From the IMG/VR virus record IMGVR_UViG_3300029267_002792: a stretch of DNA of 64,000 nucleotides, one strand, 5' to 3'. The stretch's first letter is position 1. Each line of letters begins with the position of its first letter. Below are positions 18,164-38,277 of the stretch, one piece after another. The position numbers were made by a program, and so were the translations under genes. This DNA comes from a virus. The notes beneath the pieces are model-generated. The model saw nothing but the letters and a program-made list of their open reading frames with translations. It was not told the origin of the DNA and made no database searches.

Positions 18164-18741
18164 GGTCTCGTCCTTCCTACAATCCGCCGGGTCTCCGCCT
18201 CATACATGCGGATGAGCCCTTTCAGTGTGTCTGTCACCGTCGTCCCGTTCCTGTCCGCGATGGCCTTGAAGCTCGCGTAGACGTCCCGACCAACCCAAAC
18301 GTTGATCTTCACGTCCGAGCCCCCATCCTGGAACATGTCCAGATCGTCGAACTGGTCTGCCTCCGTCACGTATTTCGACATGAGGAAGCGGACCAGAGAC
18401 GACACGCTCCGGAAACCGTGCCTGGCAGCCAAGCCATTTTTGAGCTTTCTGTGGAGGCCTTGGCTCACGAAGAAGTTGATTGGGCGCGTGTGCTCCCCAG
18501 ACGCCGGCTGTGGCACCTTGGCCTGTATATCCCGAGCCATAGCGCACGTCCGGCACAGGAGCACACCGTTGCCGACAACCCTCTTCCCACCGGCCTCTTC
18601 CGGCACGATCATGCGCACCTTCAACCGCTCAATGTCCCCGCAGTTCGAGCACCGGCCCCCACAGGCATCAAAGACACGAGTCTCCCAGGCGCCCCTCCGA
18701 TCCTTGACAGACGCCTTCAGAACCTCTGTTCCACCGTCCAT
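18160..18741 (-). CDS. Degenerate HNH zinc domain fused to two ribbon-helix-helix domains (193 aa)
   Basis: CSNC...MIVP...GN..LLCRTC lacks the catalytic His residues; two RHH-like segments RPINFFVSQGLHRKLK... and VKINVWVGRDVYASFK... Confidence 0.65.
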   Translation of the reverse strand: MDGGTEVLKASVKDRRGAWETRVFDACGGRCSNCGDIERLKVRMIVPEEAGGKRVVGNGVLLCRTCAMARDIQAKVPQPASGEHTRPINFFVSQGLHRKLKNGLAARHGFRSVSSLVRFLMSKYVTEADQFDDLDMFQDGGSDVKINVWVGRDVYASFKAIADRNGTTVTDTLKGLIRMYEAETRRIVGRTRP

Positions 18742-18748
18742 TGTACGC
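18735..18748. promoter_or_regulatory. Operator-like palindrome, copy 1 (CGTCCATTGTACGC), overlapping the HNH-RHH start codon
   Basis: 14/14 identical to the reverse complement of the copy at 59570-59583. Confidence 0.6.
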
Positions 18749-18762
18749 TTCCTCCACTACTG

Positions 18763-18776
18763 CAATTCTTAGGTAA
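18763..18776 (-). promoter_or_regulatory. TTACCTAAGAATTG motif, 21 nt upstream of ATG 18741
   Basis: 13/14 identical to 19811-19824, at a similar distance from a start codon. Confidence 0.45.
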
Positions 18777-18816
18777 ACCTACTCACACGCCGACGACCCC
18801 GAAAGGGATCTCGGAC

Positions 18817-19002: not shown

Positions 19003-19788
19003 CTACCTCGCAGTTACGCCGCCTACAGCGTCAGCAATCGCAATACCCATAGCCACTGGAGCCGCCTCACTACCGAGCGACAGCTCGTCCCAAGATTCAA
19101 CGGCAATCTCTAACTCCTGGATCGAGATCGACCCGTCAGATGCGTCGAAATCGCCAGCTGCCTTGTATCGGGCCGGAACGCAACCGTAGAGAACCCACGC
19201 CTTGGCAGGGAGTCGCGGAGCGAACTCAAAAGGCCCAAGGGGTGCCCCGGCAGCAGACGACGCTATTGATTGCGCCTGAGCCGCAGAACCGGCCAAAAAA
19301 GCCGTCGAGGCTAGAGACGAGGGACTTCCTACCAGCGCCGTCGCCGTCCCTTGTAGAGCCAGTACACCGGCCGCAGCCGCCAATCCCTGTGCCGCCCCCG
19401 CCGGAATCGGGTTCCTGGACATAAAATGCACCAGGAGCAGGTCTCTTCGAGGCGTTGCACCACCCAGCGCTGTAGCGTGGAGCGGCCCCCTTCCACCAGT
19501 GTTACCTGCTAACGCAGCCAGAACCCACCGATAGAAGTCACTGTCGTACCACTTCGAGGCCCGCGACAATGTCATGTTCGAGGCGTCGCCGCCTTTCACG
19601 ACCTTGCGCTTGAAAAACCAGTTGGCCTCGGTAATCTCTGTGATCTCGACATTCACCTCAGGGGCCGTGATCGAGGAGAAACCGAGAAGCGGGGAAAAGA
19701 GAGGAAGGGCCAAAGGTTCGATCGGCGCGATATCCATCAACCAGAACGGATAGTTCTGCAGGTAGTCAGTCAGCGAGCTTCTGGCCAC
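19003..19788 (-). CDS. Second tail-tube-like (gp19-family) protein with Ala/Gly hydrophobic insertion (261 aa)
   Basis: GFSSITAPEV..E...ITEANW; MTLSR...DSDFYRW; W.LYGCVP..YKA.GDFDAS...ISIQELE.AVE. Confidence 0.8.
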   Translation of the reverse strand: MARSSLTDYLQNYPFWLMDIAPIEPLALPLFSPLLGFSSITAPEVNVEITEITEANWFFKRKVVKGGDASNMTLSRASKWYDSDFYRWVLAALAGNTGGRGPLHATALGGATPRRDLLLVHFMSRNPIPAGAAQGLAAAAGVLALQGTATALVGSPSSLASTAFLAGSAAQAQSIASSAAGAPLGPFEFAPRLPAKAWVLYGCVPARYKAAGDFDASDGSISIQELEIAVESWDELSLGSEAAPVAMGIAIADAVGGVTAR

Positions 19789-19810
19789 GGTTCAACCCGA
19801 TCCAATCAAT

Positions 19811-19824
19811 CAACTCTTAGGTAA
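19811..19824 (-). promoter_or_regulatory. TTACCTAAGAGTTG motif, 22 nt upstream of GTG 19788
   Basis: Lies just after the terminator; matches 18763-18776. Confidence 0.45.
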
Positions 19825-19835
19825 CGCCCCGCGCG

Positions 19836-19872
19836 AAAAAGGCCGCAAGCCGCGTGAACGCGACCTACGGCC
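19836..19872 (-). terminator. Intrinsic terminator after the tail tube gene
   Basis: GGCCGUAGGUCGCG-UUCA-CGCGGCUUGCGGCC gives a 14-bp stem (with G.U pairs) followed by UUUUU. Confidence 0.8.
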
Positions 19873-19877
19873 CTCTT

Positions 19878-20414
19878 CTACGCCGCAGCGTTGACGATCA
19901 GCTCGTAGTACTCCAGCTCCAAGTCGAGTTCCATGATGGAGATTTCCGACGCCGTGGCATCCAGGTCACCTGCCACCTTGTACCGGGCCGGGAACGCCTC
20001 ATGGACCAAATAGGTCCGCTGGGCGTCCACCTCCGTCGGGATCGCCGTCAGGTTGCCCTCTGTACTTCCTGTGAGCGCTTCCTCCCGGTGGTAGTGCTTG
20101 ATCCGCACATCCTCCCGATAGTTCCCAGCGCCCTCCATGACCGTCTTGGTCCACTTCCAGAAAGCTTGGTCGGTGATCGCCACCCCTCGAGAAAGCGAGA
20201 TCGGTGCGAAAGTCGTGTTCCCCGGCTGCTTGCGGGTGTAGATGTACGTACCTTCCTTGTACTCTACCGCCTCGATCGTAGCCTCAGGAACCGAACACAT
20301 CGAGAAGCCCGCCTGCGGGGGGCCGAGACGTTCCTCGGCCGCCACCTCTCCGCTGACAACCTCGACGTGGAAACGCATCGAGTGAAGGAAGTCTTCTGAC
20401 ACTGGCCGAGCCAT
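19878..20414 (-). CDS. Major tail tube protein, T4 gp19 family (178 aa)
   Basis: D......RFHVE...AGFSMCS.PE...E.VEYKEG...KQPG...F..ISLSRG; ARYK..GDLDATASEISI.EL.L; GGAGG before ATG 20414. Confidence 0.92.
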   Translation of the reverse strand: MARPVSEDFLHSMRFHVEVVSGEVAAEERLGPPQAGFSMCSVPEATIEAVEYKEGTYIYTRKQPGNTTFAPISLSRGVAITDQAFWKWTKTVMEGAGNYREDVRIKHYHREEALTGSTEGNLTAIPTEVDAQRTYLVHEAFPARYKVAGDLDATASEISIMELDLELEYYELIVNAAA

Positions 20415-20501
20415 GTAACAGCCTCCGTCCCTGGTCCCGCCGCAGCGAGTTCCCGTCAAAGACGGGCGAGGTCAAAAACCTCTGCCGGAAGGGCTTCCGG
20501 T
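20415..20501 (-). ncRNA. Structured 5' leader RNA motif, copy upstream of tail tube
   Basis: ACCGG-AAGCCCUU-CCGG CA GAGGU/ACCUC G CCCGUC/GACGGG AA CUCGC/GCGGG, then AGGG and GGAGG; homologous to 24196-24290 and 31290-31374. Confidence 0.8.
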
Positions 20502-20543
20502 CGTTATTCCAAACCTACAACAGCCGAGCTACCAACCGCAAGC

Positions 20544-21615: not shown

Positions 21616-24195
21616 CTATGAATCCAAGGTTTTCTGCTGAAAGCGGAATCGGATAAATTCTGCAGGCTTGTTCGGAGCAATCCCGACGTCAATGATCACC
21701 TGACCAGCGTCGATCGACGCCTGGCTGTTGTTGGACTCGTCCACCGTGACAAAGAACGCCTGGGAGGGCGTCGTTCCGGCGAATAGGCCATCGTTGAAGA
21801 GATTGGTGAGGAATGCCTGGAGCTGCGCCTTGATCCGCGCCCAGAGCCCCGAACCATTGTTCTCGAAGACGATCCAGTGCGTCGAGTTGTACACGGACTT
21901 CTCGACGAACATGAACAGACGCCGGGCGTTGATGTACCGCCACTCGGACTGCAACGACAGCGTCCGAGCACCCCAGACAGCGAGGCCGGTCTGCGGTCCG
22001 GACACGAGGGGGTTGATCCTCGCGGGGTAAACCGTGTCGCGCTCCCCCTGGCTGATCGAGTCGATCTCCAGGCCAGAGAGGAAACTCAGCGCGCCATCCA
22101 CCGTCCCTGCCGGGACCTTGCCCACGTTTCGGTTCGTGTCCGTGCGAGCATAGATGCCTGCCAAATGTCCAAGAGGTGGGAACACGACCGGACGGTTGTC
22201 CGCCAACGGGTCCGCAACCTTCACCCACGGCCAGTAGATAGCCGCGAACTTGGAGTACTGCCCCACGTCGAGCCGCACGAAGTCCACCGCCTCCTGCGCC
22301 GACGAGCCCTGCGGCACCATGAGGATGGCAAAGCGATCACCACCAGAAGGGAGTGTCTCGCGGCTGTCCACATAGTCGAGCAGGTCCTTCGTGATCTGCA
22401 CGTCCCCTGCGAAATCGGGGATGATCACCTGCATCAGCTCTTCGATCTTGTTCAAGGCGTACAGGCCCTGGAAGTTTGGCTCCAAGGTGATCGCCGTGAA
22501 CTGGCTCCGACCGTAGTTGGTAGCGTCAAAGGTGCCGTCCGCACCCCCTGCGAACCCATCTAGGTGGCTGTCCTCCTCGGAAACCGACCGATACGTCGCA
22601 GACACGAGCTGATCCTGATCAATCGCATTCGACAGAAGCACGTCGATCGCGCCCGTGGTGTAGTCGATGGTGTTGTTCCCGGCGGCGTCCACATCACCGA
22701 TCAGGTTCCCTGAACCATCGTCCGTGATGGTCCGGGTCGTGCTCGTGGTGTCAGTCCAAGACAGACTGAACGAACGAGGAACGAGTGGGACGTCGAGGAG
22801 CGTGGTCGCGATAGCTCGATTCGCAGCCAACTCGTCGCCGGCAGCGACGACCTGACTCCGAGACTCACCATTGAGCTGCTGCGGCCCCTCAGCGTTGAGT
22901 GCTGGCTCAACCACGTTCACGAGGTCGGACAAGTCATTGAGCACATCGGGGAAGTACTGCGCCGAAGTCGCGTCCGTAAACGTGATCTCCTCGTAGGTCT
23001 CCTTGATGTCGTAGAGATTGGTCAACGAGTTGAGTAGCCGGACGTTGATGTTGAAGCGGGTGTAGGTATCAGTCGCAACCGTGTAGTAGTCGTCGTTCCC
23101 GATCACCTCAATCCGCATGTCGTTAGCCCACGCACCGACCGAGATCGGATCGATGTCCCAGGCCTGAATGTCGTAGTCACAGAGAACCGGGCAAGCCGTT
23201 CCGGGCTCGTACCCAGCCGCCGTGGTGAACGTGTAGTTACCAGCCGTGGCTCCCACGTAGTCGACGGAGCCCGCCGCAGTGAGGATCGGCCCGACGTCGG
23301 GGATGGCACCGCTGCCGTCGTCGGAGATTGACCGTACGTCCGTGCCGGGCGTGTAGTCGAGGGTGATGTTGGTCCCGTCTCCAGCGAGCACCGGAACCTC
23401 GGTACCGCCAAAGGTGACGACGAGGAATCCGGAAATGAGATCGAGAGTGGCCACCGTGCCTTGCGCGGATGTCCCGCTCGCGCGCATGGTCGTGCCGACC
23501 TGCGTCAGGTTGAGGGTCGTCGGCGTGGCACCATCCGGGTCCCAATTCAGGGTGATAGTGCCACCAGGAATGATGCTTGGAAGAGCCGAATCGACACCGT
23601 CAGAAGGCATCGACGTAACAACGCGGCCCTCGTAATGGTGACTCGGGTGCCCAACGGAATCCTGGACAAGCGCGGTCACACCGTCCCGCTCGAACAGGTT
23701 CTCAGTCGCTACCGGAGTATCATCCGAACGCCACCGGAAGGTGACACCAGCCGAACCCGGCTCCGCCACAAGGTCCGTGATCAGGGCAACCGGCGTGAGC
23801 ACGGCCTGAGTGACCGTCGCCGTGGCACCATCACCGGTGTTGCATTGGAAATCTCTCCGAGCACTGGTGACCTGACCTTTGTCGTAAGCCGAGGGAGCAC
23901 CCGACTGGTCGGTCCCGGCCTCCACCGCGTCTCCGGGCATCACCCGGACGACATAGGCTCGGCGTCCACCATTGGCGAAGAACGCGGCCATGGAGAGACC
24001 GGTTCTTGACTCCGCAATGAGATCGCCGAAGATGCTGATGAATTGTCCGAACGAGGTGACCAGGATCGCTTCGTCCGTAGGTCCTCGCTGAGTTGCTCCA
24101 ACGATGCCCAAGTTCGACGTGGAAACCGGCTGCACGACCTGGACGGCACTCGGCACCTCTTCTACGAACACACCGGGCGATAGTATTTCGGCCAT
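21616..24195 (-). CDS. Tail sheath protein, gp18-family, with large inserted domains (859 aa)
   Basis: SPGVFVEE; FFANGG..AYVVRV; YWPW.KV.DP...PP.GHLAGIYARTD; INP...WGARTL; YINARRL; WIVFENN; GIAPNKPAEFI. Confidence 0.95.
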   Translation of the reverse strand: MAEILSPGVFVEEVPSAVQVVQPVSTSNLGIVGATQRGPTDEAILVTSFGQFISIFGDLIAESRTGLSMAAFFANGGRRAYVVRVMPGDAVEAGTDQSGAPSAYDKGQVTSARRDFQCNTGDGATATVTQAVLTPVALITDLVAEPGSAGVTFRWRSDDTPVATENLFERDGVTALVQDSVGHPSHHYEGRVVTSMPSDGVDSALPSIIPGGTITLNWDPDGATPTTLNLTQVGTTMRASGTSAQGTVATLDLISGFLVVTFGGTEVPVLAGDGTNITLDYTPGTDVRSISDDGSGAIPDVGPILTAAGSVDYVGATAGNYTFTTAAGYEPGTACPVLCDYDIQAWDIDPISVGAWANDMRIEVIGNDDYYTVATDTYTRFNINVRLLNSLTNLYDIKETYEEITFTDATSAQYFPDVLNDLSDLVNVVEPALNAEGPQQLNGESRSQVVAAGDELAANRAIATTLLDVPLVPRSFSLSWTDTTSTTRTITDDGSGNLIGDVDAAGNNTIDYTTGAIDVLLSNAIDQDQLVSATYRSVSEEDSHLDGFAGGADGTFDATNYGRSQFTAITLEPNFQGLYALNKIEELMQVIIPDFAGDVQITKDLLDYVDSRETLPSGGDRFAILMVPQGSSAQEAVDFVRLDVGQYSKFAAIYWPWVKVADPLADNRPVVFPPLGHLAGIYARTDTNRNVGKVPAGTVDGALSFLSGLEIDSISQGERDTVYPARINPLVSGPQTGLAVWGARTLSLQSEWRYINARRLFMFVEKSVYNSTHWIVFENNGSGLWARIKAQLQAFLTNLFNDGLFAGTTPSQAFFVTVDESNNSQASIDAGQVIIDVGIAPNKPAEFIRFRFQQKTLDS

Positions 24196-24290
24196 TGCCT
24201 AGTCCCTCCTAAGGGTCCATCCCCGCATACTGCGAGTTCCCGCCACGTCGGACGAGCAGGCCTTGCGACCTTGCCGGCTGGAACACCGGT
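24196..24290 (-). ncRNA. Structured 5' leader RNA motif, copy upstream of tail sheath
   Basis: ACCGG-UGUUCCAG-CCGG CA AGGUC-GCAA-GGCCU G CUCGUC/GGCGGG AA CUCGCA/UGCGGG, then UGGA and GGAGG. Confidence 0.8.
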
Positions 24291-24325
24291 ACTAAGTTTT
24301 CAACACCACACCACCGGCGTGGTAG

Positions 24326-29798: not shown

Positions 29799-31289
29799 TT
29801 ACAGGTTATTCACGGTCAGCTGGCCATAAAAATCTGGCCGAAGCAGCTTCTTGGCGTACCGCGTGCGGAGACCCTTGCGGAAGCTGAAGTCCGATGGATC
29901 GAGGAAGGTCGGAGTGACCTGGAGTGGCACGTAGGGAGCCCAAACGAAGCCGCTCTCCAAGAAGGAGCCGCCCTTCAACCCGATCATCATCTTGTTGGTC
30001 GTGAAGAAGGGGTCTTCGTAAACGGTCCACTTGTTCATGAGCGTTCCGGTCTTGTAGATGGAGAACTGACCGTGGCTCGTCCTGGGCCGCATCATGATGT
30101 CGGTGGGCGAGTTCGGGTTCATGTCTCCCGACCAGATCGGCTTGAAGTCACCGTGTGTGGTCAGCTGGGTCAAGAGCGCCGAAATCTCGGGGCTCGTGAC
30201 GATCCAGTTGGCAGGCGCGCGGAGCGTCTTCTTGTGGATGAGATTCGAGACCGTGCTGATCTGCGTGATCATGGCACGCAAGTGGTCGATCTCGGAGATG
30301 CCACCCGGAGGGATGCGATCGAAGGTACCAGTCGTCCCGGTCGAGTTCAGGAACAGGTCCTGAATGATCTCACGGTCGATTTCCAGCGCAATCTCCTGCG
30401 CGATGATCGACACGATCTCGGTCTCGGCGTCGAGGCCGTGGAAAGCTCGGAGATCCTCCGCCGCCTCGGACGACCACAGGGCCTTGAGCCGACGCGGCTT
30501 GGCCTCCACGGGGGACTTCTTGACGTCGAGCTTGACCTCGGGGACCTTCGTGTTCAGCTCGCCGTCGAAGTAGTAGTACGCCTTGACCTGGTTGCCGGTG
30601 GCCGGCGGGTTCGTGAACAGGAAGCCGGTGATGGCACCGTTCGAGTAATTGATCGTGCCCGCAGTGACAGCACCAGTGAAACCACCGGACCCGTCGTCGG
30701 TGGCTTCCTGCACGGTCGCGCCAGCCGAAGACACCTCGCGAACGATGCACGAAAACCCACGAGTCGCGTCCAGTGGTCGAACTGGCGTCCAGGCGAGGTC
30801 GGCATCGAGCGGGGTGCCCGCACCACCGTAGTTGACGTTGTCTCCCGTGACCAGCGGTTCGCCGTTGACATACTCACTGGAGTAGTCCCGATCGAAATCC
30901 CGAGGGAAGACCGCACCCTCGGTCGTGCCGCCCTTGGTGGAGCCGTACACGTAATCTAGGAAGAAAACCGCGCCGATCGGAGCGGTCATCGGCTGGACGC
31001 TGACGATCTCGTTCGCGATCAGGTTGGGGAAAACTCTCCTCAACACCGGGAAAATGAACTTGGTGAACGAGCCGACGTTGACGGTCCTTGTCTCCTCCGT
31101 GAGAGACTGGAGCCACAGGGACTCGTTCTCCATGAGCATGGCCGTACACCCGAGGATGTACCGATCCTGCTCTGAATAGTCGGCGAGGCCCTCCAGGAAG
31201 TCTCCCCACTTCCGAATCAAGGCCCCGACGTAGCTCTGGTCGGCGATGGTTTGACGACCTTCTTCTTGAAGCATCTGTCGAGCTTCCAC
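29799..31289 (-). CDS. Major capsid protein, T4 gp23-like (496 aa)
   Basis: LRRVFPNLIANEIVSVQPMTAP.G.VF.LDY; RRLKALWSSEAAEDL.A.HGLDAE.E....A.EI..EIDREI; YAPY/WAPYVPL; TRYA. Confidence 0.95.
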   Translation of the reverse strand: MEARQMLQEEGRQTIADQSYVGALIRKWGDFLEGLADYSEQDRYILGCTAMLMENESLWLQSLTEETRTVNVGSFTKFIFPVLRRVFPNLIANEIVSVQPMTAPIGAVFFLDYVYGSTKGGTTEGAVFPRDFDRDYSSEYVNGEPLVTGDNVNYGGAGTPLDADLAWTPVRPLDATRGFSCIVREVSSAGATVQEATDDGSGGFTGAVTAGTINYSNGAITGFLFTNPPATGNQVKAYYYFDGELNTKVPEVKLDVKKSPVEAKPRRLKALWSSEAAEDLRAFHGLDAETEIVSIIAQEIALEIDREIIQDLFLNSTGTTGTFDRIPPGGISEIDHLRAMITQISTVSNLIHKKTLRAPANWIVTSPEISALLTQLTTHGDFKPIWSGDMNPNSPTDIMMRPRTSHGQFSIYKTGTLMNKWTVYEDPFFTTNKMMIGLKGGSFLESGFVWAPYVPLQVTPTFLDPSDFSFRKGLRTRYAKKLLRPDFYGQLTVNNL

Positions 31290-31374
31290 GGTTTGCCTCC
31301 GCCCCGAGTCCCGCTCTCACGGGTTCCTGTGTTCAACAGGCGAGGTGTCAACCTCTGCCGGTCGGGTATCCGGT
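31290..31374 (-). ncRNA. Structured 5' leader RNA motif, copy upstream of major capsid
   Basis: ACCGG-AUACCCGA-CCGG CA GAGGU/ACCUC G CCUGU/ACAGG AA CCCGU-GAGA-GCGGG, then UCGGG and GGAGG. Confidence 0.8.
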
Positions 31375-31427
31375 CTGCTAGATCATTCTGTCACGGCGGA
31401 GCGTCGTTGCCCGCCAGAATCTCCCAC

Positions 31428-35178: not shown

Positions 35179-38100
35179 TTAGCGCCCCCGAGCAGCAGAG
35201 GCTACATCCCGAATCAGCGCCACGCTTTCCTTGAGCCGACGGCTCTGAGCATCGCTCGACCGTAGGATACGATCAAGCTTTGTCTCTGCTCGCTTCTCCG
35301 CCTCCCGACTCCCTCTAAGCAATTCTTGTTCAGAAATACCGCCACGAAGCCTACGTGGGAGCGAATCGATCTTGCGCTCCAACATACGCATCCCAGACCG
35401 GAACCCTGAAGGCAACCCCAACGACTCCACGCCCCCTCCCACAGCGGCCGACGCTCGCTCAACATCAGCCTGAGCTTGCGCGCTCATCTTCTCGACCTCG
35501 GCCTGCGCCTTACCCTCGCGAATGACATCCTCGGATCGCTCCTGAATGATGATCCGGATGTCCTCCTCCGACAGCTGGTAAACGTTCTCCAAAACCCACC
35601 GAAGGGAAACGTGCTCCTTCATACGAGCCGCCAAGTCCGCCCGAGCGTTCCGAACCTCCAACTGCGCCAGCTCGAAAATCGCTGACGGCACAGTCATGTG
35701 AATCGTGTACTCGTGGTCGTACGGGTTGACGTTGATTGCGGCCAAGTGCGTCCGGCTGATCTTCCTCAAGCCGTTCCGAATCTCACGCTGGACCCGGAGC
35801 ACAGAGCGAGCGAACCGGACATCCTCGCTGGAGAGCACGGCGCGAGCCGTATTCTCGTCCTGAGCAAGATATGCCTTCGGCACCTTGAGTGCGGAAAACA
35901 TCTTCGTCTGGAAGTACTCGACGTCGTCCATGTGCTGCCAAGAAGGACCACCGAGAACCTCAATCCGAGTACCCTCCACTCCTTGGCGGACCGGCACCCA
36001 GAAATCGTCATCCTGGCTAAGTGGTTCAAATTTCAGGTCTAATTTACCTGTGGAAGGGTTCACAAATCGCTTCTTCTTGTGCTGCTGCCGAATCCTGTTC
36101 ACAAACGCCAGCGCCTCCTGGGGAGGCAAATTACCTACATCTACGTAGAACGCAAAGCGCTCAGGCGCTCGCTGGAGCCGGTAGATCATGGCAGCGTCTT
36201 CCAGGAGCATCAATCGCTTCCATATCCAGCGCGCAGGCTCGAGAACGGAGTTGTGAACGACGAGCCCGTCAGCAACAAAGTTGTGCGCTTCGTGATCAAC
36301 CTCAATGTCGTAAACAGGCTCAGGCGGAGTATCCTGCTCGGTGACAGAAAGCACCCCCTCCAACTTGAAAGGCCCGTCGAACAACGGCGTAGTGTGGAAG
36401 TGAATAATATACCCAGGCCCTGAATCCACCACCTTACCCATCATGGCAGGATGCGTCGACACCACACCACGACGCGCCCCGCGGGTACAGACATTCCCAC
36501 ACGTCCAACCCAACCCATCGATAAGAGTTTTCAGATCGCGGACCAAGTCGTAGTTGCTCAGCTCCACTCGCTTCGCCCGACACCCAGCCTGCTCAACCTC
36601 CCAACCGTCAGCCGCTACAAACCCCGCAACAAACGCCTCCCTGATATCTCGCGACGACTCAAACACCCACTGTGGCACACGCTTATCATGAGAACCATTG
36701 ACAAACCCGAGCCCTCGCAAAATGTCCACGAAGTCGGCCGAGTGAACAACAAGCTGTCGAAGGACACGAACCTCTTCTCCAGTGTCCTCATTGACAACCC
36801 TCTGATAGCGCTCCTTCGGCTCCAACCCATACACCCGAAACCGCTCACGAATGTTCTCAGTCAGTGATTCGTCCAAACTGACAGCCACACCAACATCATG
36901 CCCCTGCGAGGTCCATCCATCGCCCAAGAGCAACCCAAACAACCACGCAAATTCCTCGTCCACATACTCAGGGCACCGGACGAAGTTCCCTCGGCATCGT
37001 CCATGAACCACAAACGCCCCAGGGCGTGCCAGCTCAGGAACTGCCCCACACATCCGATCAAACACATCCCGAACAACACTTCGATCACCGGCACAAAATA
37101 CGTCAGCCCCGGCGTCGATATCGCTTAGCCCGGTCCTTCGGTAGAAATACCGCTCCCCTTCTCGAAGTCTAGCCACCGCTTCGACCCCTTCAGAGGTCAA
37201 CCGCACTCGATCAAACACCTCCGGGCTCTTAGTCCGTGTAAGTACCCCGTCAACCTCAGGAGGACGAGGAAGAACAAGTCGATCACCTCGACACAACTCC
37301 GAAACAGGCTTGTAGGTCAACAAATCGGTCTCGCTGAACACCATCACAGGGTGCTCTGCCGTGGCAAAGTTTTCGCGATGCCGAGTCTTGATCGAATAAA
37401 CCTTCTTCTCTCCACTACGAACCACGTCAAGAACCTTCACCCCGATCATTCGGCTGTTGTCCATAACATGAACAACGTCTCCGGGACGTAGGTTCTGGAT
37501 CTCCTTCACCCCGAACGGGGTAGAGACCTTTGACGTCGCCCTTTCGCAATAACCGTATACACTTCGGCGATGCTTTCCCCGCAAGCGAAAATGGGCGACC
37601 TCCCAAGGTTCGAGCGCATTGACCCGCTGAAGCATGTTCCCGGGCACCCGAGCCTGGCCCGGCTGCATAGCCTGGCGAATGGCATCGGTACGCTGAGCGA
37701 GGATCTTCTGAAACCCCTGAGGACTATACCCGAATCGACCTTTGAAATCCTGGACGAACCCGTACAGCTCCCCGCGCGGGCCTTCCACGCGCCGGACCGT
37801 AGGAGCGGGGAGAAAATTCAGACCGACCACACCCTCATCCGTGACAAGCAGCTCCTCAAAGTCGTTCCCGTACTTGACGAGAGACCGCACTATCTCCCAA
37901 ATCTCCTCGTCAAGTCGGAGGCGCTTGTAGAACAGATCGTCCAGTACACCTTGAAGGGTCTTGTCCGGACTCGACACCCACACCGTTCGTTGAAGCTGAG
38001 TATCGGGCTGAGAAGCATCGTCCGCGTACACGTCGATCGCTGATGCTATCTCGGGATAGTCATCCATCTCCTCGTAGTCGACGTATCGGCTTAGGAGGTC

Positions 38101-38277
38101 GTGTTCGAGCCGGAGATAGTCCGACAGAGCGTCGTACCCGTAGGCTTGCAGAAGGTCGTACCCCGAATCCGGGTAGGTCGGAGACGTGCTGCCCTTCGCG
38201 AGCAGCTGTCCCCCACGCTCTTTATCTGCCACGAACGCGCCGCGTAGGCGATCAATGACGTTCTGTACAGCGCCCAC
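35179..38277 (-). CDS. Portal protein, T4 gp20-like, interrupted by an intein (1032 aa precursor, about 599 aa mature)
   Basis: YEEMDDYPEIASAIDVYADD; RSLVKYG..F; LLEDAAMIYRLQRAPER.AFYVDVGNLP; DDFWVPVR.G..GT.IEVL.G; ALKVPKAYL; EDVRFAR. Confidence 0.95.
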   Translation of the reverse strand: MGAVQNVIDRLRGAFVADKERGGQLLAKGSTSPTYPDSGYDLLQAYGYDALSDYLRLEHDLLSRYVDYEEMDDYPEIASAIDVYADDASQPDTQLQRTVWVSSPDKTLQGVLDDLFYKRLRLDEEIWEIVRSLVKYGNDFEELLVTDEGVVGLNFLPAPTVRRVEGPRGELYGFVQDFKGRFGYSPQGFQKILAQRTDAIRQAMQPGQARVPGNMLQRVNALEPWEVAHFRLRGKHRRSVYGYCERATSKVSTPFGVKEIQNLRPGDVVHVMDNSRMIGVKVLDVVRSGEKKVYSIKTRHRENFATAEHPVMVFSETDLLTYKPVSELCRGDRLVLPRPPEVDGVLTRTKSPEVFDRVRLTSEGVEAVARLREGERYFYRRTGLSDIDAGADVFCAGDRSVVRDVFDRMCGAVPELARPGAFVVHGRCRGNFVRCPEYVDEEFAWLFGLLLGDGWTSQGHDVGVAVSLDESLTENIRERFRVYGLEPKERYQRVVNEDTGEEVRVLRQLVVHSADFVDILRGLGFVNGSHDKRVPQWVFESSRDIREAFVAGFVAADGWEVEQAGCRAKRVELSNYDLVRDLKTLIDGLGWTCGNVCTRGARRGVVSTHPAMMGKVVDSGPGYIIHFHTTPLFDGPFKLEGVLSVTEQDTPPEPVYDIEVDHEAHNFVADGLVVHNSVLEPARWIWKRLMLLEDAAMIYRLQRAPERFAFYVDVGNLPPQEALAFVNRIRQQHKKKRFVNPSTGKLDLKFEPLSQDDDFWVPVRQGVEGTRIEVLGGPSWQHMDDVEYFQTKMFSALKVPKAYLAQDENTARAVLSSEDVRFARSVLRVQREIRNGLRKISRTHLAAINVNPYDHEYTIHMTVPSAIFELAQLEVRNARADLAARMKEHVSLRWVLENVYQLSEEDIRIIIQERSEDVIREGKAQAEVEKMSAQAQADVERASAAVGGGVESLGLPSGFRSGMRMLERKIDSLPRRLRGGISEQELLRGSREAEKRAETKLDRILRSSDAQSRRLKESVALIRDVASAARGR
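36250..37548 (-). mobile_element. Intein with LAGLIDADG homing endonuclease (433 aa) in the portal gene
   Basis: Starts at Cys (GY|CERATSKV), ends VVHN|S; block B FATAEHPV; LAGLIDADG motifs FGLLLGDGW and AGFVAADGW. Confidence 0.93.

Follow-up and report, generated by a model that had tools for sequence, protein, structure and literature searches.

The DNA analysed here (the window, 64,000 nt) belongs to a 109-kb IMG/VR record of a T4-like phage. On its minus strand it carries the gene of the major capsid protein of the Gp23 family (29799..31289; Pfam PF07068, E 1.5e-73; PHROG 138), upstream of which a prohead protease is encoded, the tail sheath gene (21616..24195; PF17482 and PF04984, with matches to sheath PHROGs), and the tail tube gene of the T4 gp19 family (19878..20414; PF06841, E 9e-22). 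An element of ~80 nt is found three times on this strand, and each copy ends at the GGAGG Shine-Dalgarno sequence (SD) of one of these genes. All copies share one layout, in which a hairpin (P1 or H1) with an 8-nt loop (L1) is followed by two more hairpins, a conserved GGAAC, a GC-rich P4 and a short tail.

The copy in the capsid (gp23) leader, at about 31294-31377 of the minus strand, scores 101.8 bits with our covariance model R1 and 90.9 bits with model R2, which describes the virion copies. Read on the minus strand, it comprises the 5' strand of P1 (ACCGG, 31373-31370), L1 (AUACCCGA, 31369-31362), the 3' strand of P1 (31361-31358), P2 (31355-31342), P3 (31340-31326), GGAAC (31327-31323), P4 (31323-31310), the tail (31309-31301) and the SD (31300-31296), and the gene starts with GTG at 31289. 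The copy of the tube (gp19) leader, at about 20420-20504 on the minus strand (covariance-model score 91.8 bits), has its L1 at 20496-20489, GGAGG at 20426-20422 and the ATG at 20414. The copy of the sheath (gp18) leader, at about 24205-24293 on the minus strand, is scored at 77.3 bits by R2 and at 23.1 bits by R1; its L1 is UGUUCCAG (24285-24278), its GGAGG lies at 24209-24205 and its start codon, ATG, at 24195. All sequence differences among the three copies fall in loops or preserve the structure: P1 is invariant (CCGG/CCGG in each), P2 displays four doubly changed pairs and P3 one, and P4 varies by G-C/G-U changes alone.

Sequences of related phages reveal how these leaders probably came about. 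Compared with five relatives, the capsid leader is a clean insertion of 77 nt between TAR and GGAGGCAA; in the tube leader of relatives, GTAGGTTTG..TAA continues directly into GGAGGCTGT and the element is absent; and in phages whose capsid, sheath and tube proteins are 77-90% identical to those encoded here, the conserved upstream sequence runs straight into the same SD context. In this phage the element is an insertion of ~77 nt that immediately precedes each SD. The motif was found neither in 122 loci of relatives searched with models R1 and R2 (79 capsid, 16 tube and 27 sheath loci) nor in a strain whose capsid protein falls in the same 90%-identity cluster, and the weak matches of the models in relatives (L082/L083) and at L487:12629 lie inside coding sequence and were dismissed. 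Contigs from sequencing runs contained no variants over the leaders, and those of relatives cease to align at the SD. Rfam yielded no match at the gathering score over the 64 kb, the matches around the three copies being at chance level (E ≥0.9), and a blastn search of the leaders against 50,697 deposited phage genomes returned only matches with E ≥3. Scans with consensus patterns gave, on inspection, chance matches only in viral contigs and, among the matches listed, chance matches only in metagenome and genome contigs.

A promoter scan revealed no T4 late-promoter consensus, sigma-70 promoter or terminator near the leaders. Words resembling GTAGGTTT and TTACCTAAGA recur upstream of several late genes (18741-18800, 19788-19840 and 20511-20518 of the window, minus strand), and in relatives GTAGGTTTG is conserved ahead of the tube gene, possibly as a late promoter or as a signal of another kind.

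The same phage has been assembled elsewhere as a contig of 193,864 nt, which carries mini-CRISPR arrays of type I-E without cas genes. We located at least eight such type I-E-like arrays (L495:13120-13520, L495:16340-16760, L496:14680-17570, L503:7545-7710 and L485:90-400), the repeat of which can be written as GGUUCCCCCGCACGCG(C/U)G(G/A)GGAUGGACC or, in its given form, as GGUUCCCCCGCACGCGCGGGGAUGGACC; the Thermus thermophilus Cse3 repeat, by comparison, ends in GGGGAUGGACCG. Each array is preceded by a leader of three hairpins in which the loop AUUCCA never varies, and in several of these leaders a U8-11 tract stands before the first repeat. In the closest relatives we found neither arrays nor array leaders, and since both are lacking there, the arrays and the virion-gene leaders co-occur in this one lineage.

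Covariance-model searches connect the two sets of leaders in both directions. In the ~194 kb of this phage the virion-type copies are only three, and on the rest of the contig R2 picks up array leaders weakly, at 23.1 bits (E 1.4e-3) and 15.3 bits. A model constructed from seven array leaders only (R3) returns the sheath leader as the top and single significant match in the 64-kb window (19.8 bits, E 6e-4); the capsid and tube copies escape this model and are linked to the array-leader family solely via the sheath copy. The array leaders of R3 exhibit eight covarying, doubly changed pairs across H1-H3 around their invariant loop, and their H1 changes between CG and UA, AU and CG, and UG, CG and GC. 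The order and spacing of H1 with its 8-nt loop, H2, H3 and GGAAC are the same in both sets. The array leader CL1, for instance, reads GCCGA-UAUUCCAG-UCGGU, H2, H3, GGAAC and UCGCGUGUGUGUGGAGGGGAUUGGCU, and the sheath leader ACCGG-UGUUCCAG-CCGGC, P2, P3, GGAAC and UCGCAGUAUGCGGGGAUGGACC, its L1 matching the invariant AUUCCA loop. The virion copies differ from the array leaders in preceding an SD and a gene instead of repeats and spacers, in a shorter H2, and in an L1 that has diverged in the capsid and tube copies. A TTGACA-17-TAATCT sequence noticed by eye upstream of CL1 was not called by the promoter scan.

The sheath copy also resembles the repeats themselves. Its P4 3' strand and tail, GCGGGGAUGGACC (24226-24214, minus strand), agree at every position with the final 13 nt of the type I-E repeats of this phage; these 13 nt comprise the 3' strand of the repeat hairpin and the 5' handle of the crRNA, so that the pre-SD segment UGGA of this copy lies in crRNA 5'-handle sequence. 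When the sheath P4 and tail are aligned to the 28-nt repeat, the score exceeds those of 1993 of 2000 shuffled sequences, whereas in the same test P4 and tail of the capsid and tube copies exhibit no significant repeat likeness by sequence. When the whole repeat is compared with the window without gaps, the sheath leader does not stand out; what it shares with the repeat is limited to the 3' 13 nt and the hairpin shape. The virion leaders look as if they had been copied from the mini-CRISPR array leader of this phage, in the sheath copy together with part of a repeat, and we give this view an even chance. On this interpretation, P4 and tail of the sheath copy would be a still recognisable remnant of a CRISPR repeat (its 3' half) and of the crRNA 5' handle, AUGGACC, behind it.

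The other members of this RNA leader family, which is known so far from this phage alone, are the at least eight array leaders and one copy that precedes a tnpB gene and has UCCA in its loop and UGGA in a handle-like CUGGACC. The gene in question encodes TnpB (OrfB_IS605 / Cas12f-like; L495:14910-16447), and the family copy ahead of it is accompanied by a degenerate repeat (CL3). Another leader, CL4, and its array are situated directly after the tnpB gene, which raises the question of a functional link between TnpB and the arrays.

A preliminary description of the window had drawn attention to a complementarity between L1 and the segment between P4 and the SD. Its coordinates and base pairs proved correct in every case when read back on the minus strand: in the capsid copy CCCGA (31366-31362) faces UCGGG (31307-31303), which begins 2 nt past P4; in the tube copy CCCU (20493-20490) faces AGGG (20432-20429); and in the sheath copy UCCA (24282-24279) faces UGGA (24219-24216). 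These are five, four and four Watson-Crick pairs, ending 2, 2 and 6 nt, respectively, before GGAGG, within the range of 2-6 nt originally given. In each of the three, the first paired nucleotide of the loop is position 4, and this segment is the sole complement of L1 that they have in common. As to the assertion that both sides change together, two positions are doubly changed among the three paralogues (one from G-C to U-A to A-U, another from C-G to U-A), but the 3' strand of the sheath copy is shifted by 1 nt, and because it sits one column off, only 73% of the cells pair in fixed alignment columns.

Chance complementarity was assessed by shuffling the loops. At least 4 bp with the copy's own tail arose in 8-12% of trials per copy, in all three copies at once in 1e-3 of trials, and in all three with the same loop start in 2.5e-5 of trials. 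The virion copies all come from one phage and are therefore paralogues, not independent lineages; when capsid and tube are counted as one lineage, the frequencies become 0.0086 (≥4 bp) and 0.0018 (same loop start). When the whole family is considered, 10 of the 11 members have a complement of L1 of at least 4 bp at 12-29 nt past GGAAN, where shuffling predicts such a complement in 4.1 (P 4.5e-4). This 18-nt zone was picked after the data had been seen, and the remaining member reaches just 3 bp there. If members are collapsed to lineages, the count is 8/9 (P 7.5e-4), and control windows farther downstream contain such complements in 1/11 and 0/11 members. In this wide zone the chance of pairing is 0.6-0.75 for the capsid and tube copies, which have G-rich tails and C-rich loops.

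The preliminary description further envisaged a long-range pseudoknot that closes P2-P4 into a compact fold. This remains plausible: the minimum-energy fold of the capsid leader uses the helix, and the geometry (3 nt, 4-5 bp, 0-1 nt, then the 3' strand of P1) is consistent with an H-type pseudoknot. On the other hand, the folding z-scores of the three leaders (-0.6, -0.8 and 0.0) indicate energies no better than those of shuffled sequences, and the short helices, calculated as nested closing helices, are thermodynamically marginal (-7.5, -4.4 and -2.6 kcal/mol) and comparable with P1 (about -6 kcal/mol). The array leaders, whose loop never varies, show no covariation in this pairing, and the partner of their loop slides between UGGA, GGAA and GUGG. 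Alternative pairings are also available. Each loop has other complements of 4-5 bp, such as CCCG:CGGG within P4 of the capsid copy and GUUCC:GGAAC in the sheath copy, and P1 of the tube copy can be extended to 6 bp, which leaves a loop of 4 nt.

We consider a real contact between L1 and the 3' segment to be somewhat better than an even bet. The pairing is probably a selected long-range (pseudoknot) contact of the leader RNA family that closes P2-P4 into a compact fold, because the capsid and tube copies have replaced both partners and are still complementary. The UCCA:UGGA pairing of the sheath copy corresponds to that between the array-leader loop AUUCCA and UGGA of the handle, and CCCGA:UCGGG of the capsid copy and CCCU:AGGG of the tube copy are both altered on either side from the array-type pairing.

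The best-surviving alternative, which we regard as rather unlikely, dispenses with the pseudoknot: the hairpins would fold independently, L1 would be recognised, in a sequence-specific manner, by a protein or by an RNA acting in trans, and its complementarity to the tail would be fortuitous. It would agree with the invariance of AUUCCA in eight array leaders whose stems covary, with a chance of matching per copy that is 0.08-0.17 when the true tail is used and as high as 0.75 in the 18-nt zone, and with the near-zero z-scores; a 3x3 swap of loops and tails is, moreover, only partly cognate, the cognate pair not being the best in every case. It does not readily explain why the same loop start together with complementary double changes is obtained in just 2.5e-5 to 1.8e-3 of shuffles, nor why complements are concentrated in one zone in 10/11 members when control zones contain 0-1.

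According to a second and distinctly less probable alternative, L1 really pairs with the invariant GGAA(C) where P3 meets P4, forming UUCC:GGAA, and this contact has been lost in the capsid and tube copies. This junction (J3/4) offers an equally good partner, with 4-5 bp at precisely the homologous position, in all eight array leaders and in the sheath copy (AUUCC:GGAAU in CL5). The capsid and tube copies, however, keep GGAAC but have changed L1, so that only 2 and 3 bp, respectively, can be formed; there is no covariation in this pairing, and GGAAC is partly contained within P3 and P4.

If the contact between L1 and the tail is accepted, its purpose has to be considered. The preliminary description held it to be well placed to present or mask the SD, in the manner of an IRES-type enhancer or a switch, and the position of the element, 2-6 nt from the SDs of the genes for capsid, sheath and tube, the three virion proteins of greatest abundance, speaks in favour of such a role. 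This interpretation fared poorly, and we hold it to be very unlikely. The same fold and the same complementarity occur in the CRISPR-array leaders, which have neither an SD nor a gene behind them and which therefore argue that the contact is not an SD device. No alternative pairing that would sequester the SD is conserved, as the alternative folds differ between the copies, and blocking the pseudoknot strands in silico does not raise the unpaired probability of the SD (0.74 to 0.57, 0.12 to 0.02 and 0.27 to 0.24). Relatives, moreover, express the same genes without the element. The adjacency to the SD reflects the insertion site of the cassette, directly 5' of GGAGG, and does not in itself point to a design for masking the SD. 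Overall, the computations of stability and of SD accessibility lend support to no mechanism.

Leader pseudoknots upstream of or around the RBS are familiar from the T4 gene 32 mRNA and from the E. coli alpha operon (S4), where they are autoregulatory protein-binding sites. The former likewise belongs to a T4-type phage and the latter likewise links a hairpin loop to an RBS-proximal sequence. The genes concerned are different, however, no Rfam sequence or model match was obtained, and the fold described here is shared with non-coding array leaders. As to candidate RNA-binding proteins, no S21 or S1 was found in the 109-kb record, nor was RegA, for which the same search was also empty in its control genomes. 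The phage does encode a small KhpA-like KH-domain RNA-binding protein (L504:12204-12470), which is also encoded by the motif-less relatives G001, G003 and G005.

A role of the element in expression is likely, because the cassette was inserted three times and on each occasion came to lie exactly 5' of the SD of a virion protein, the three proteins being those with the highest copy number. We put forward a tentative mechanism, doubtful in its complete form, according to which the CRISPR leader-repeat module has become a portable 5' UTR. Cas6e, of which we found no gene in the 109-kb record, would be supplied by the host, and would bind and perhaps cut the repeat-like P4 at its 3' base (GCGGG(G)|A). 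Such a cut, 10-14 nt ahead of the SD, would leave the capsid, sheath and tube late mRNAs with a defined, decay-resistant 5'-OH end, stable and insulated from upstream RNA. The helix between L1 and the tail would either present the cut site or keep the handle-like tail out of reach of Cascade assembly; in the boldest version, the pseudoknot would prevent this tail from nucleating Cascade on the mRNA.

Two observations from other phages provide a background for this mechanism: solitary repeats occur in viruses without cas genes, and a phage repeat mimic processed by Cas6f has a 5'-OH handle end that makes it more stable than the 5'-PPP transcript (PMC10651486). Such Racrs, or viral solitary repeat units (Camara-Wilpert et al. 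2023, PMC10651486), are similar to the element in that a CRISPR-repeat-like hairpin comes from a cas-less phage, and a Cas6 enzyme binds them and cleaves where the stem ends on its 3' side, which leaves a stable 5'-OH end. A Racr, however, is a stand-alone small RNA with its own promoter, whereas our hairpin sits in the 5' UTRs of protein-coding genes, with no promoter-like site adjoining, behind three leader hairpins, and the SD follows 10-14 nt later. Likeness to a repeat is clear in the sheath copy alone, and nothing in the phage element suggests an anti-CRISPR role. It is highly improbable that P4, carried in abundant late mRNAs, acts as an RNA anti-CRISPR or decoy of the Racr kind that titrates host Cas6e and Cas7: although the hairpin is repeat-like and the viral genome cas-less, and although Racrs against type I-E are documented (PMC10651486), the phage's own spacer-bearing arrays depend on functional Cas proteins of the host, genes expressed late could not counter the defence in time, and the capsid and tube copies are poor mimics of a repeat.

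A further parallel to the proposed Cas6e cleavage is a synthetic one. In 2012 Qi et al. reportedly insulated an RBS from its 5' UTR by means of engineered Csy4/Cas6 cleavage sites. There, too, a Cas6-type hairpin lies just upstream of the RBS, and cleavage gives the mRNA a context-free 5' end; the difference is that this insulator was engineered, while cleavage of the phage element is our conjecture.

If the mechanism holds, a virus would have reused CRISPR leader and repeat RNA for ordinary gene expression, the element would be the first natural CRISPR-derived RNA module ahead of structural genes, and phage-borne mini-arrays would be tied to the control of late mRNAs. The cassette is compact (~77 nt), has been inserted beside an RBS three times in nature, and is a candidate non-array substrate of type I-E Cas6e. 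Even if the Cas6e step is left aside, it constitutes a structured RNA family that is new, probably contains a pseudoknot and is confined to one uncultured T4-like phage of sediment and seawater metagenomes.

Several other features of this genome deserve a brief mention. The ~194-kb assembly is probably circularly permuted and near complete, because L504:16475-16580 overlaps L485:1-112, the start of the 109-kb record, inside an array leader. It also encodes a Ro60-like vWA protein (PF25045; L502:5670-7415, equivalent to L503:13564-15309), a TubZ-like tubulin (L493:2374-3696) and a peptide deformylase (L503:3044-3688). In the window, the portal gene (Portal_T4; 35179-38277, minus strand) carries an intein (Intein_splicing), and a TARA relative (L491:2098-6285) possesses additional LAGLIDADG homing-endonuclease genes, one of them directly upstream of its sheath gene.
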